From the sequence record MZ065353.1: 64,000 nt of DNA; one strand, given 5' to 3'. The translations under genes were made by a program, and so were the position numbers. The notes below the pieces were generated by a model. The model ran no database searches. It saw nothing but the letters and a program-made list of their open reading frames with translations, and was not told the origin of the DNA. Below, piece by piece: positions 29,640 to 63,434 of the stretch (the first letter of the stretch is position 1; the number at the start of each line of letters is the position of its first letter). Source of the stretch: Escherichia virus KFS-EC3.

Positions 29640-30449
29640 TTAGAAACGAGATGCGACTTTCGCATATACACTTACAATATCTTCTGCACCAGGTGCAGCT
29701 TTATCTTCTACAGCTTCAGTGACGAAATTCAGTCCGGCTGCTTCAGTATCAGGAGTATTTATACCCTCAGTAATAGTGCTTTCATCTTTATTAGACTTCT
29801 TCACCATTTCTACGATGGCACTCAATTTACTTGAGAATGCATCTGAATAATCCATACCTTCGACCAGAGCAGAGACTTTTTCTTTTTGAGACTCAGTCAG
29901 ATCTTTAGTACTTTCGCTCAATGCCACTTCACGCTGCACATAATTGATATATGCGTCGCGCATATTGAGTTCTTCGAACAGACGAGCTGATTCTTCTTTA
30001 TGTTCTTGCAGCTCTTCTTCCATTTCAGCTACAACATCAACTGATTCTTCTGGAACAACAACGTTGTGTTCAACAAAGAGCTCTTTTAATCCACCAAGCA
30101 TGGATTCAAACAGTTCGGCTTTGATGCCTTTATCAACTGCTAATTTATTTTCAGCGAGCCATTCTTTCGCAAGATGGTCGATGAATTTAGAAGCTTGCTC
30201 AGCGATTTTCTTCTCAGCTTTTTCTTCGGCTTCTTCTTTATTTTTTTCTACTTCTTCTTCTGCTTTTTCAGCAATTTTAGCGATATGAGATTCAGCTAAT
30301 TTAACGGCGTGCTGCTTGACGGTAGCTTCGAATACAGTGCCGAAAGTTTCTTTTGCTTCCGGAGAAATATTAACTGATTCGAAAATACTATCAAGAGCAA
30401 CGGAAGCATCAATTTTTTGCGCTTCAGCAATCAGTTGTTCTTTAAGCAT
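29640..30449 (-). CDS. 22: prohead core scaffold protein gp22
   Basis: 269 aa as T4 gp22; E/K-rich helical composition. Confidence 0.85.
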   Translation of the reverse strand: MLKEQLIAEAQKIDASVALDSIFESVNISPEAKETFGTVFEATVKQHAVKLAESHIAKIAEKAEEEVEKNKEEAEEKAEKKIAEQASKFIDHLAKEWLAENKLAVDKGIKAELFESMLGGLKELFVEHNVVVPEESVDVVAEMEEELQEHKEESARLFEELNMRDAYINYVQREVALSESTKDLTESQKEKVSALVEGMDYSDAFSSKLSAIVEMVKKSNKDESTITEGINTPDTEAAGLNFVTEAVEDKAAPGAEDIVSVYAKVASRF

Positions 30450-30479: not shown

Positions 30480-31118
30480 TTATAACGCTTTTTTCATGGC
30501 CTCTGCGAGAGCCATATAGGCGTCATCGGCACTTGTATCGGCTTCCGCCGTCTGTGATTCGGTAATTTCCTTAGGAGTTACCCATGCATCTGGAGCACTT
30601 GGACCCCATACTGCATCAACACCTACAGTTAATTTGAATCCTTCGTTTACGATACGATAACCTTTATTTGTGTCAGTCAATGAACCTAATCCACGAGAAG
30701 AAACTCCTGGAATCCATCCGGCACGAATATTAGCTGCTAATTTATCTCCAGGACCATGGTCACCTTCAATAACACGAGCTCGTCCGTATACGTCATTTCC
30801 TTTCCACCACATATCTTCTATAATGATAGCGGCTTGCATCGGGTCAACATTAGCGCGTGGAGGATGATTTAATTCTCCGAGAGCTTGTTTAGTTAAAACT
30901 TGCTCATTGATATAGTCTTTTACCGCTTTTTCTAATATGCGTTTTGGATAAAGACGTTTATTTCTATTGACGACTTCCGCTTGCATGAATATTCCTTCGA
31001 TGTATAAACCGGGTTTTAAACCTAGGTCTTTTCCATCATGAGATTCAAGCATTGGCACGCCATCAATAATTTCGCCAGGTTGACCCCAAGTTTCAATTAG
31101 TAATTGGGGTTCATTCAT
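30480..31118 (-). CDS. 21: prohead core protease gp21
   Basis: 212 aa as T4 gp21. Confidence 0.85.
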   Translation of the reverse strand: MNEPQLLIETWGQPGEIIDGVPMLESHDGKDLGLKPGLYIEGIFMQAEVVNRNKRLYPKRILEKAVKDYINEQVLTKQALGELNHPPRANVDPMQAAIIIEDMWWKGNDVYGRARVIEGDHGPGDKLAANIRAGWIPGVSSRGLGSLTDTNKGYRIVNEGFKLTVGVDAVWGPSAPDAWVTPKEITESQTAEADTSADDAYMALAEAMKKAL

Positions 31119-57119: not shown

Positions 57120-57946
57120 TGGCTATTTTTCAAATAATTAATGAAAGCACTCCCCAAGTTCCAAAGGTTAAGCAATCATTAAACGAAAAGAAATGGATTC
57201 AGATAGGTCTTGAATACAAAAAGGCCAAAGCAAAAGGAATGACAGGAAAGCAATTTGCTGAAGAAAGAGGAATCAAATACTCTACGTTTACTTCAGCAAT
57301 GTCAAAATATGCTTCAGGAATTAAAACAGCTGAAAAGATTCAAAAGCTTGAATCAAAACCAATGAATAAACTCAATAAGCAAGAAAGACAACTGCTTATG
57401 ATAAATTCATTCAGGCAAACGTTGCGTGATAAAATTCGTAATGAAGGTGCAGCAATTAATAATAAAACCAGAAAGTGGTTTGCTGAAACTATTAAGCAGG
57501 TAAAAGGACATAAAGTTGTTCGCCCGCAGCCGGGACGAATATATGCTTTTGCTTATGATGCTAAACACAAGGAAACTCTTCCTTATTGGGATAAATTTCC
57601 TTTGATAATTTACCTCGGTTTAGGTAAACACAATTTAATGTACGGATTGAACTTGCACTATATTCCACCTAAAGCTCGTCAGCAATTTCTAGAAGAGCTT
57701 TTAAAGCAATATTCAAATACACCTACTATTACTAATAAAACGAAATTAAAAATTGATTGGAGTCAAGTGAAAGGATTTAGGGGTGCAGACCAAATGATTA
57801 AGGCATATATACCTGGTAATATTATGGGTAGCCCTGTTGAAATCGCCCCGAAAGACTGGGCGAACGTTGTGTTAATGCCACTCCAAAGCTTCTACTCCAA
57901 AGGAAAACGTTTCTCTGCAAACAAAGTTTGGAGCAATGTACGATGA
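57119..57946 (+). CDS. 2: DNA end protector protein gp2
   Basis: 275 aa (T4 gp2 is about 274). Confidence 0.8.
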
Positions 57947-58602
57947 ATTATGAAAAAATTTATAATTCACTAATTGATAGGGCTCGCAATAGAGCCCTTA
58001 CTGGATATAAAGAAAGACATCATATTATTCCGAAATGTTTAGGCGGTAGTAATGATGCTTCTAACTTGGTTGATTTAACTCCAGAAGAGCATTATGTTGC
58101 ACATCAGCTATTAGTAAAAATACACCCAAATTCTTTAAAATTATCTTATGCAGCCATAAAAATGACGGTTTCAACTAAATATGTTAGGAGAAATAATAAA
58201 GTTTATGGTTGGTTAAAAAGAAAACATGCAAATAATATTTCAAATACACAAACTGGACGAAAATATTATAATAATGGTAAAAGATGTATAAAATTACATG
58301 ATGGAGATATAATTCCTGGGGGATTTATTTTAGGAAGAGGATGGAGTCCGACACAAGGAACAACTCATTCTAGAAAAAATGACACGTTTAAAAACAAAAA
58401 GCTTCAATCTGCTTTAGCTAATAAACGGTGGGAAAAAGAAAAGAAAATAATGTTAGATAACTTTGGAGTTAACACTATTGATGAAGCAAAGAAAATTGTT
58501 CTTGATTTTAAATCAACTTGTCATCCAAGATATTGGCGAAAGCCAACTTTAGAAAAATTTCCATTTATGACTTCTGCTCGTTTAAGAAGTCTAATAAATT
58601 AA
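57928..58602 (+). CDS. free-standing HNH homing endonuclease inserted between genes 2 and 3
   Basis: 224 aa; [10 protein letters not shown]...[15 protein letters not shown]; N-terminal half closely parallels the ORF at 20101-20793; overlaps the gp2 3' end by 19 nt. Confidence 0.75.
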
Positions 58603-60002: not shown

Positions 60003-60699
<697 letters not shown>

Positions 60700-60712
60700 T
60701 TTCACAAAGTTG

Positions 60713-60744
60713 TTTACATGCTGATGAGGTAGTGATACTATTAT
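60713..60744 (+). promoter_or_regulatory. T4-type early promoter inside a stem-loop (PeSL-like cassette)
   Basis: GTTTAC, 17 nt, then ATACTATTAT; inverted repeat TGATGAG/CTCATCA. Confidence 0.5.
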
Positions 60745-60771
60745 CTCATCAAAATTAATTAGGAAAATAAA

Positions 60772-61029
60772 ATGAAAACTTTCAAAGAGTTTGCTACAAA
60801 AACCACTATCACTGAATCTTCTCACGGTATGGAAGTAAAGCTTGGAATGGCTTTAGCTGAAGCTGAGCGTCTTTTCTCTCGTATTAAAGAACTTGCTGCT
60901 GCAGTCGATCCTTCATCTTTTAAAGGAGACCAAACTAAAGTTAAAGCACTTTTAGCGTTATGCTCCGATGCAGGAGAAATTGCTAAAAATGGTTCTAAGA
61001 TGAAGAAACGATTAGAAGATTTAAAATAA
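60772..61029 (+). CDS. internal-protein-like protein with capsid targeting sequence
   Basis: 85 aa; N-terminus MKTFKEFATKTTITE resembles T4 internal protein leaders (MKTYQEFIAE) with an I-x-E protease site. Confidence 0.6.
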   Translation: MKTFKEFATKTTITESSHGMEVKLGMALAEAERLFSRIKELAAAVDPSSFKGDQTKVKALLALCSDAGEIAKNGSKMKKRLEDLK

Positions 61030-61042
61030 TTTCACAAAGTTG

Positions 61043-61073
61043 TTTACACAGGGTTTTAGTAGTGATACTATTA
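61043..61073 (+). promoter_or_regulatory. T4-type early promoter inside a stem-loop (PeSL-like cassette)
   Basis: GTTTAC, 17 nt, then ATACTATTA; preceded by the same 31-bp junction as the 60713 copy. Confidence 0.5.
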
Positions 61074-61106
61074 CCCTATCAAAACAAAATCAAATGGAAA
61101 TCAAAA

Positions 61107-61339
61107 TGAAAACTTTCAAAGAGTTTATCGCTGAATCTTCTGATGTAAAAGTTGAGTTTATTTACACTGGCAAGAAAGATAAAATGGGTGAAATGCCTTA
61201 TGGAGTTCTTCGTGATGCATTAGATAATTTCGGTCAACTCGCCGCAGAAGATTACGGTGATAAAATTGTTGTTACTGGTCCTGCTGCAGTTATTGAAAAA
61301 TGGGCAGCAGAAAATAAATCAATTTTTCGTAAAAAATAA
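61107..61339 (+). CDS. internal-protein-like protein with capsid targeting sequence
   Basis: 77 aa from the ATG at 61107 (MKTFKEFIAESSD...); track ORF starts upstream inside the promoter. Confidence 0.6.
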
Positions 61340-61371
61340 GTTTACTTTTAGATGGGGTAGTGATACTATTA
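61340..61371 (+). promoter_or_regulatory. T4-type early promoter inside a stem-loop (PeSL-like cassette)
   Basis: GTTTAC, 17 nt, then ATACTATTAT, then GAGGAGAA RBS. Confidence 0.5.
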
Positions 61372-61397
61372 TCTCATCAACTACTGAGGAGAATAAA

Positions 61398-61583
61398 ATG
61401 AAACGTTGTGAATTAATTCGAAATGTTGCTATTGCAATTTCTGCTTCTGCTTTTAGTTTTTCAATGTTTGTTGGATTTATATGCGGATTATTGACTACAG
61501 CAGAAAATGTTTTTTCACTTGTAGTAGCATTTTTAATTGGTTTAATTGCTATCGTTATGGATAAAATTTCTAAAGGTGAATAG
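61398..61583 (+). CDS. small predicted two-helix membrane protein
   Basis: 61 aa from the ATG at 61398 with two hydrophobic stretches; track ORF start at 61257 lies inside gene/promoter sequence. Confidence 0.5.
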   Translation: MKRCELIRNVAIAISASAFSFSMFVGFICGLLTTAENVFSLVVAFLIGLIAIVMDKISKGE

Positions 61584-61965: not shown

Positions 61966-62258
61966 TAATGATTCTTTATGCGAAAGTATCATCCATTGAA
62001 AATGGATATAAATATGATCAAGACGCGGCTAAAGCCTTGATTGATGATTATGGCATTTTAACATATTTTGAAGTTGAAAAGGTTTACATTGACCGTTCAT
62101 CTTCACAAGTTAAATTAGTGAAGGAAGACCGTAAATTTAATACAGTAAATTTTGATTTCTTTATCGAAACAGAAAAAGGTCCTCTTGAATATGATATTTT
62201 CAAGAATCCTTTGGGTCTTGAATGTATTAAATATACTTACATTAATGCAGCGTGGTGA
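61962..62258 (+). CDS. hypothetical protein
   Basis: 98 aa ORF overlapping previous stop. Confidence 0.45.
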   Translation: MIMILYAKVSSIENGYKYDQDAAKALIDDYGILTYFEVEKVYIDRSSSQVKLVKEDRKFNTVNFDFFIETEKGPLEYDIFKNPLGLECIKYTYINAAW

Positions 62259-62776
62259 AAATGAATATTTGTTTAGGTACTACAATTCCGCAGGGCTACG
62301 TAATTGATGTCACTACCTGGGAAAATGATGGTGACAACTATAAAACCAAAACATTGTTTGGCGTAGAAGAGCATGAAATCTTACAATTTCAGTATCTTTT
62401 AAAGAAGTTTAAAAGCAGATATTCTAGTACTAAAATTGAGCGCTATTGTGGTAATGGTTTGTTCAGCGAGCAATCTCTTTTTATTTATGAATACTTGGTT
62501 GAAGGACTGTTCTCAGATCAGCTTTATCCAGAATTCATTAAAAAGGTCTTTCGCATAGAAGTTGATCTTGGTAATAAATCTGAAGAAGATGAAGAACGTG
62601 TATTTGACTTATTCTTTGTGAATGGTAATAAAGTGCTTGAAGGACTTATTAATATTTTAGGTAATGCTTCTGAGTATTATGATTATGATTTTTTGCGTGT
62701 AGTTGAGAGTGTTAAATACTCTTATATAGAAGAAGAAATTGTTTTGCCGACCGTTAAAATGTTTAATTTGCTTTAA
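62252..62776 (+). CDS. hypothetical protein
   Basis: 174 aa ORF overlapping previous stop. Confidence 0.45.
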   Translation: MVKMNICLGTTIPQGYVIDVTTWENDGDNYKTKTLFGVEEHEILQFQYLLKKFKSRYSSTKIERYCGNGLFSEQSLFIYEYLVEGLFSDQLYPEFIKKVFRIEVDLGNKSEEDEERVFDLFFVNGNKVLEGLINILGNASEYYDYDFLRVVESVKYSYIEEEIVLPTVKMFNLL

Positions 62777-62862: not shown

Positions 62863-62935
62863 TGGGAATTAGCCAAGTTGGTAAGGCACTGGATTTTGAT
62901 TCCAGGATGCAAAGGTTCGAGTCCTTTATTCCCAG
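62863..62935 (+). tRNA. tRNA-Gln (anticodon UUG)
   Basis: hand-folded cloverleaf: acceptor TGGGAAT/ATTCCCA, anticodon loop TTTTGAT, T-arm AAAGG-TTCGAGT-CCTTT. Confidence 0.75.
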
Positions 62936-62936
62936 C

Positions 62937-63023
62937 GCGAGAATGGTCAAATTGGTAAAGGCACAGCACTTAAAATGCTGCGGAATGATTTCCTTGTGGG
63001 TTCGAGTCCCACTTCTCGTACCA
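62937..63023 (+). tRNA. tRNA-Leu (anticodon UAA)
   Basis: acceptor GCGAGAA/TTCTCGT, anticodon loop CTTAAAA, long variable arm, encoded CCA. Confidence 0.75.
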
Positions 63024-63029
63024 AAGTTT

Positions 63030-63101
<72 letters not shown>

Positions 63102-63113
63102 AAATTTAATTTA

Positions 63114-63187
63114 CTCCGTGTAGCTCAGTTTGGTAGAGCGTCTGCTTTGGGAGCAGAATGTCGTAGGTTCAAATCCTGCCGCGGAGA
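63114..63187 (+). tRNA. tRNA-Pro (anticodon UGG)
   Basis: acceptor CTCCGTG/CGCGGAG, anticodon stem TCTGC/GCAGA, loop TTTGGGA. Confidence 0.75.
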
Positions 63188-63189
63188 CT

Positions 63190-63276
63190 GGAGGCGTGGC
63201 AGAGTGGTTTAATGCACCGGTCTTGAAAACCGGCAGTCGCTCCGGCGACTCATAGGTTCAAATCCTATCGCCTCCG
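63190..63276 (+). tRNA. tRNA-Ser (anticodon UGA)
   Basis: acceptor GGAGGCG/CGCCTCC, anticodon loop CTTGAAA, long variable arm. Confidence 0.75.
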
Positions 63277-63283
63277 TAATTTC

Positions 63284-63356
63284 GCTGATTTAGCTCAGTA
63301 GGTAGAGCACCTCACTTGTAATGAGGACGTCGGCGGTTCGATTCCGTCAATCAGCA
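63284..63356 (+). tRNA. tRNA-Thr (anticodon UGU)
   Basis: acceptor GCTGATT/AATCAGC, anticodon stem CCTCA/TGAGG, loop CTTGTAA. Confidence 0.75.
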
Positions 63357-63362
63357 TATCAA

Positions 63363-63434
63363 GGCCCTGTAGCTGGAAGGTTCAAGCAAGCGACTCATAA
63401 TCGCCAGATGGTGGTTCAATTCCACCCAGGGCCA
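63363..63434 (+). tRNA. tRNA with CAU anticodon (Ile-type by T4 analogy, or Met)
   Basis: acceptor GGCCCTG/CAGGGCC, anticodon loop CTCATAA, T-arm GGTGG-TTCAATT-CCACC. Confidence 0.7.

Follow-up and report, generated by a model that had tools for sequence, protein, structure and literature searches.

Genes and features between 57B and trna.4

The window, meaning the whole stretch of 64,000 nucleotides that was analysed, derives from a T6-like Tequatrovirus. On its + strand we find, in order, an HNH-like ORF, gene 3, gene 1, 57A, 57B, ip5, ip6, trna.4, trna.3, trna.2, an extra ORF and a tRNA cluster. The T4 layout is the same, except that T4 has ipI where the window has ip5 and ip6. The original prediction had placed two small genes at a polymorphic locus after 57B, in the slot of T4 ipI, and this position is borne out: ip5 and ip6 lie between 57B and trna.4, with flanks as in T4 and PST. 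The features of the locus are listed below.

60244..60699, + strand: gene 57B (Acb1 anti-CBASS phosphodiesterase), full-length, the conserved left border (Pfam Acb1, E=2.6e-60; position as in T4 and PST)
60684..60754, + strand: cassette copy 1, comprising the last 57B codons, an early promoter and an inverted repeat (repeat family D1, promoter scan)
60772..61029, + strand: ip5 (ORF1), from ATG 60772 to the stop at 61029, encoding an 85-aa precursor
61014..61084, + strand: cassette copy 2, comprising the last ip5 codons (...EDLK and stop), an early promoter and an inverted repeat (repeat family D1, promoter scan)
61106..61339, + strand: ip6 (ORF2), from ATG 61106 to the stop at 61339, encoding a 77-aa precursor
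61312..61382, + strand: cassette copy 3, which precedes trna.4 and forms the right border of the IP locus (repeat family D1, alignment)
61398..61583, + strand: trna.4, a 61-aa predicted membrane protein, the conserved right flank (PHROG 1692, E=6e-35; position as in T4, PST, RB32 and Bas37)

The start of ORF2 was set at ATG 61106, which has its own GGAAA Shine-Dalgarno-like box and agrees with all homologues. A mechanical ORF list gave TTG 61040 instead, a candidate that is outweighed by this box and by the homologue starts.

Leaders and predicted mature proteins

The N-terminus of ip5 reads MKTFKEFATKTTITE up to the predicted cut and SSHG... beyond it, with an I-x-E site at ITE15 and a leader encoded at 60772-60816. 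That of ip6 reads MKTFKEFIAE followed by SSDV..., with the site at IAE10 and the leader at 61106-61135. The earlier description of both ORFs as starting with MKTFKEF ahead of an I-x-E site is thus accurate, coordinates included. When the 64 kb window is translated in all six frames, the pattern M[KQ][TM][FYH][KQ][ET]F has just two matches, which are the starts of ip5 and ip6; 5.5e-5 occurrences of MKTFKEF are expected by composition.

Alignment shows MKTFKEF of both ORFs to be the first seven residues of T4 IPI. The Ip5-type leader resembles the T4 IPI leader MKTFKEFTSTTTPVSTITE, and the Ip6-type leader resembles the T4 IPII/IPIII leader MKTYQEFIAE; leaders identical or near-identical to those of the T4 internal proteins agree with the claim that both ORFs carry a capsid-targeting leader of the T4 type. 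When the ip5 and ip6 products were aligned with T4 IPI, IPII and IPIII, nothing aligned past the leader. A profile search gave leader-only matches to five other PHROG families, indicating that the leader is common to otherwise unrelated proteins. The mature parts had been described as unrelated to each other, and a BLASTP comparison of mature Ip5 with mature Ip6 indeed gives no alignment at E<=100.

The Glu of the predicted cut site (E15 in Ip5, E10 in Ip6) is invariant across the aligned homologues while neighbouring leader residues vary, and one Ip5 relative with a shortened leader, MQTYQTF-----ITE, keeps it. Cleavage at these sites is predicted to leave a mature Ip5 of 70 aa (7.5 kDa, pI 9.2, 13 K/R residues) and a mature Ip6 of 67 aa (7.4 kDa, pI 6.2). 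Ip5 has extra [LI]-x-E motifs at LAE30 (residues 28-30) and IKE40 (38-40), inside its first predicted helix, and the final product could therefore be much smaller than 70 aa if gp21 used them.

Identity and spread of Ip5 and Ip6

Across its 85 aa, ORF1 is 100% identical to the ip5 product of RB15 (EMBL Z35082), from an entry titled 'Bacteriophage RB15 DNA for Ip5, Ip9, Ip7, Ip8' that was deposited with Repoila et al. 1994 and whose note places RB15 ip5 between 57B and tRNA.4. It is also 100% identical to the UniRef cluster 'Ip5 ... Q38630_BPT6', its exact sequence occurring on 205 contigs, and matches PHROG 3499 (E=1.2e-49). The RB32 annotation reads 'similar to RB15 T6 T2 RB70 Ip5 ... replaces ipI'. 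ORF1 and the Ip5 of RB15, T6, T2, RB70 and RB32 are the same gene with no difference, being 100% alike in sequence and occupying the same slot, the first after 57B.

ORF2 belongs to PHROG 8111, 'internal virion protein' (E=6e-51), and is 74-77% identical to proteins named Ip6 in VR20, VR26, JK1 and VR7. The family is called ipVI in PST and GiZh and ip6 in VR7, VR20, VR26 and JK1; the name Ip6 is thus taken from later annotations, the original ip6 entry not being its source. In all of these phages, and in bas37_0260 of phage Bas37, the gene is like ORF2 in its PHROG, in its equal length and in being the second gene after 57B.

The tblastn searches gave 496 phage records with Ip5 and 245 with Ip6. 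The commonest variant in the Ip6 cluster occurs on 158 contigs. The exact Ip6 sequence of the window is rare, with 4 contigs in the cluster look-up and 2 phage records that match at 99% or above. For the 801-nt stretch around both genes, the identities are 99.8% with Shigella phage ESh26, 99.3% with Yersinia phage PST and 97.4% with T6; among the 730 phage records that match this stretch, 156, T6 included, do so with at least 80% coverage. The original prediction had called both genes novel, which does not hold, since both are named and widespread and each has its own PHROG. By their sequences, ip5 and ip6 are already named T-even internal-protein genes that are present in hundreds of sequenced phages, and as they have been named since 1994, finding them here adds little in itself.

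Remote homology and predicted folds

No significant Pfam family was found for Ip5 or Ip6. A sequence search of the PDB gave a best E=0.76 for Ip5 and no match at E<=10 for Ip6. AF2 models, made from shallow alignments of 8 and 4 sequences, predict a small beta-alpha-beta-beta-alpha-beta fold for Ip6 (best pLDDT 81, confident in 1/5 models) and a two-helix hairpin for Ip5 (pLDDT 72). Foldseek against the PDB returned nothing significant, the best matches being generic ferredoxin-like folds (E=0.076) and generic helical hairpins (E=0.88). In BFVD, we see only Ip6 relatives, with 'Ip6 putative internal head protein' of VR7 as the top match. Among 5.8 billion proteins, Ip6 has 11 clusters of homologues and Ip5 has 5, too few for a deeper profile to be built. 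The predicted models and their fold matches give no hint of mechanism.

Repeat cassettes and gene exchange at the locus

A 71-nt direct repeat is present in three copies, one ahead of each of ip5, ip6 and trna.4, with identities to copy 1 of 83% for copy 2 and 69% for copy 3. The promoter scan gave a match of the form TTTACA-17-TACTAT with TG at 60713-60741 in copy 1 and at 61043-61071 in copy 2. Around the -10 box lies an inverted repeat, GATGAG...CTCATC in copy 1 and AGGGT...ACCCT in copy 2, so the sequence of the stem arms changes between these copies while their complementarity is kept. Copy 1, ahead of ip5, differs very little from the sequence that precedes T4 ipI. No late promoter TATAAATA was found directly upstream of ip5 or ip6, and T4 ipI likewise has none in this position. 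Exactly such repeat/promoter cassettes were reportedly described for IP loci by Repoila et al. in 1994. Related composite motifs of promoter and stem-loop (PeSLs) have been described for PST in comparison with T4 (PMC4122927).

The cassette reaches into the 3' end of the preceding gene, and for this reason 57B ends in ...DDLK and stop, much as ip5 ends in ...EDLK and stop. The two genes have their last codons and the following 20 nt in common (60684-60699 and 61014-61029). The repeat joint at these 3' ends is probably a recombination joint.

Polymorphic IP loci are two in number, one from 57B to trna.4, which holds ip5 and ip6, and one from e to denV. At the former, T2 has Ip5-Ip7, RB32 has Ip5-Ip9-Ip7 and RB15 has Ip5-Ip9-Ip7-Ip8; the Ip5-Ip6 pair is found in T6, PST, Bas37 and the window, and the first slot is most often taken by Ip5. 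At the e to denV locus, relatives of Ip5 (~48% identity) are seen in 228 phage records, for example at 1501-1782 in HMD-9, and it follows that the Ip5 fold has spread to both IP loci. In Bas37, denV adjoins e with no annotated gene between them, whereas T4 has ipII and ipIII in the same interval; Bas37 may thus have no small internal proteins beyond the two encoded at the 57B locus. Homology between the cassettes, and between the segments that encode the leaders, would let related phages swap IP genes.

The Bas37 locus (MZ501089, phage KarlGJung) is collinear with the window. Its bas37_0261 is 100% identical to ORF1, and bas37_0260 is 94% identical to ORF2 (72/77), differing at F4Y and K5Q in the leader and at S11T, S12A and Y32H in the mature part; the window thus has the leader MKTFKEFIAESS and Y32 where bas37_0260 has MKTYQEFIAETA and H32. 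At the nucleotide level, ip6 of the window and of Bas37 differ at 7 positions, six of which fall within the first 40 nt (61106-61145). All six match the ip5 leader of the same phage (60772-60825), as TTC AAA GAG ... ATC ... TCT TCT. From this pattern, the start of ip6 looks like a short gene-conversion patch copied from the ip5 leader, and such a patch fits with shuffling mediated by leader homology.

Predicted processing, packaging and injection

The window also encodes the prohead protease and the scaffolding core protein, both nearly identical to their T4 counterparts, along with gp67, gp68 and gp20.

30483..31118, - strand: gene 21, prohead protease (tblastn with T4 gp21, 99.5% identity over 212/212 aa)
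29643..30449, - strand: gene 22, scaffolding core protein (tblastn with T4 gp22, 98.9% identity over 269/269 aa)

In T4, the leader is enough to target foreign proteins into the head, and IPI is both packaged and injected (PMC3012670). By analogy with T4 IPI-III, the capsid-targeting leader would carry each precursor into the prohead scaffolding core, where gp21 would cut after ITE15 in Ip5 or IAE10 in Ip6. The mature proteins, of ~7.5 kDa, would remain with the DNA inside the head and accompany it into the cell, which would allow them to act ahead of all phage gene expression. From this likeness, we strongly infer packaging and leader cleavage for Ip5 and Ip6, and we infer their injection with the DNA. 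The searchable literature yielded no proteomic study of virions and no N-terminal sequence determination that covers Ip5 or Ip6.

Ip6 and McrBC

A 2025 preprint on HIDEN-SEQ describes Bas37 as having two genes at the ipI locus, of which bas37_0260 bears an IP leader, and reports that deletion of bas37_0260 makes the phage specifically sensitive to McrBC (10.1101/2025.11.20.689424). Insertions in this gene were recovered at a mean of 8.4 reads per site on K-12 BW25113, compared to 227-340 on five clinical isolates (10.1101/2025.11.20.689424). As reported in the preprint, the McrBC phenotype is a genetic requirement rather than direct binding, and it belongs to a variant with 3 mature residues that differ from those in the window. 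T6 and T2 retain about 25% naked 5hmC, and McrBC cleaves 5hmC DNA (PMC13160076); Bas37 has a-gt and ba-gt enzymes of the T2/T6 type (10.1101/2025.11.20.689424). We propose that McrBC would attack the non-glucosylated hydroxymethylcytosine kept by T2/T6-type phages, and that Ip6 would block McrBC. To judge from its similarity to bas37_0260, blocking McrBC is the most likely role of Ip6. The original prediction had called the specificity of both proteins unknown. For Ip5, which is still without a target, that stands, but Ip6 now has a probable one, since its near-identical homologue is needed against McrBC.

T2 has naked 5hmC, yet carries Ip5 and Ip7 and no Ip6, so Ip6 is not the sole way to cope with McrBC. 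A one-to-one link between Ip6 and incomplete glucosylation was rejected for the same reason, as T2 carries Ip7 instead. T4 Arn is an early-expressed McrBC inhibitor that is made after infection and is not known to be a leader-bearing internal protein; its target enzyme is the same as that reported for the Ip6 homologue. Arn is not among the 50 fold matches listed for the Ip6 model, from a library that may not include it.

GmrSD enzymes and a CFT073-specific signal for Ip5

Each of T4 Ip1, Ip2 and Ip3 acts as inhibitor of a single GmrSD type IV enzyme, a different one in each case (PMC12373910). For ip4-10 of related phages, no reproducible inhibition was seen of the GmrSD variants tested (PMC12373910), where the ip5 and ip6 of Silas et al. 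2025 are assumed, by shared nomenclature, to equate to the genes in the window. T6 has both Ip5 and Ip6, yet remains subject to restriction by GmrSD-CT596, -ECOR17 and -ECOR21 and by the UTI89 enzyme (PMC12373910, PMC4437046). In comparison with T4 IPI, whose processed form IPI* inhibits GmrSD-CT596, we see that ip5 and ip6 have the same locus, promoter cassette and first seven residues. IPI and Ip5 also have the ITE cleavage site in common, whereas Ip6 has IAE. The packaged and injected mode of IPI would extend to Ip5 and Ip6 by analogy. The mature domain of IPI*, however, is unrelated to either protein, with the leader alone aligning, and the GmrSD-CT596 that IPI inhibits does restrict T6 despite its Ip5 and Ip6.

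Transposon data for bas37_0261, the gene identical to ip5, are available from Extended Data Table 7 of the HIDEN-SEQ preprint (10.1101/2025.11.20.689424), and are given below as insertions relative to K-12 BW25113.

CFT073: log2FC -2.09 (four-fold drop), mean 263.4 to 61.0, adjusted p printed as 0.00000
CFE299: log2FC -0.01, not significant
CFE303: log2FC -0.01, not significant
CFE331: log2FC -0.13, not significant
CFE336: log2FC +0.26, not significant

The gene goes unmentioned in the text of the preprint, and SanaTA is the sole CFT073 entry on its list of selected defence systems (10.1101/2025.11.20.689424). We see that the immigration control region of CFT073 contains a GmrSD-domain gene beside a DUF262 pseudogene, a type I system and a second DUF262 gene of 550 aa, and that mcrBC is absent from this region. 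One CFT073 gene, c5421, has been described as a GmrSD homologue (PMC4437046). Given a depletion confined to CFT073 and the GmrSD and DUF262 genes present there, Ip5 might block one such enzyme. As 57B insertions are depleted on CFT073 too (log2FC -1.56), polarity or a neighbour effect could also account for the bas37_0261 signal. A further caution for this lead is the restriction of T6, an Ip5 carrier, by the four other GmrSD enzymes named above. It is a tentative suggestion, and on balance a doubtful one, that Ip5 is an injected inhibitor of a CFT073 defence absent from K-12 and the four other clinical isolates, with targets of the GmrSD/DUF262 type the most plausible. In more general terms, a modification-dependent nuclease other than McrBC is the most likely target of Ip5. 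On the existing transposon evidence, the target of Ip5 would best be sought in E. coli CFT073.

Overall interpretation

The best reading of the ip5 and ip6 products is as anti-restriction proteins that are packaged and injected. In the field, genes of the IP loci are generally taken to encode such injected factors (PMC3012670, PMC12373910). We put at roughly 80% the probability of the full reading, namely that ip5 and ip6 are members of the T-even internal proteins that are packaged, cleaved by gp21 and injected, with Ip6 acting against McrBC and Ip5 against another nuclease. A different function could be proposed for the packaged proteins, with both serving in the main to fill the head, as structural or charge-balancing material that aids DNA condensation or ejection, and with anti-defence activity being secondary. 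T4 heads contain about 1000 internal protein molecules, whose lysines contact DNA phosphates (PMC3012670), and the basic character of mature Ip5 suits such a role, but mature Ip6, at pI 6.2, is not basic. Transposon insertions in Bas37 hit 15/15 and 18/18 TA sites of the two genes, which are thus non-essential there, and gene content at the locus varies among close relatives, which is unexpected for a structural need. The host-genotype-specific phenotype of the ip6 homologue, tied to McrBC (10.1101/2025.11.20.689424), also speaks against a function in head filling, which we consider very unlikely.

It could also be that both proteins are expressed early and act as inhibitors in the cytoplasm alone, the leader being an inherited handle for recombination and packaging not occurring in useful amounts. 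Only early-type promoters lie directly upstream, and the knockout phenotype fits an injected or a newly made protein alike. The same upstream arrangement, however, precedes T4 ipI, the gene of a packaged and injected protein; the cut-site Glu is kept in all homologues while residues around it in the leader drift; and the protease and scaffold match those of T4 almost completely. Moreover, we would expect an enzyme that cuts incoming DNA to be best countered by a protein present at entry. A purely cytoplasmic role is thus improbable, if a little less so than head filling. The ORFs are short and lie among repeats, as chance reading frames in an intergenic repeat region might, but this explanation has a negligible probability and is already refuted by conservation: the exact proteins recur on up to 205 contigs for Ip5 and 158 for the commonest Ip6-cluster variant, tblastn finds them in 496 and 245 records, the reading frame is kept in divergent homologues, and there is experimental evidence for one of the two genes (10.1101/2025.11.20.689424).

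Neighbouring features in the window

As 57B encodes Acb1, its position beside ip5 and ip6 makes a run of three consecutive genes with a known or suspected role in counter-defence, and the phage can be annotated with ip6 as a probable McrBC counter-defence gene beside the anti-CBASS gene 57B/acb1. Just upstream of gene 3, an ORF of ~220 aa (57928-58602) has weak matches to HNH endonucleases (E about 0.003, below the Pfam cut-off); a mobB-like homing endonuclease is annotated in this slot in RB32, and none in T4 or PST. Between trna.2 and tRNA-Gln lies an extra ORF of ~171 aa (62252-62776) with no Pfam match, in a slot that is empty in T4 and PST and that holds ORFs of the same size in RB32 (RB32ORF135c) and T2; this is another variable slot. 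Seven tRNA genes follow at 62863-63434, for Gln, Leu, Gly, Pro, Ser, Thr and Met (anticodon CAT), and the CAT tRNA occupies the position of the tRNA annotated as tRNA-Ile in T4.
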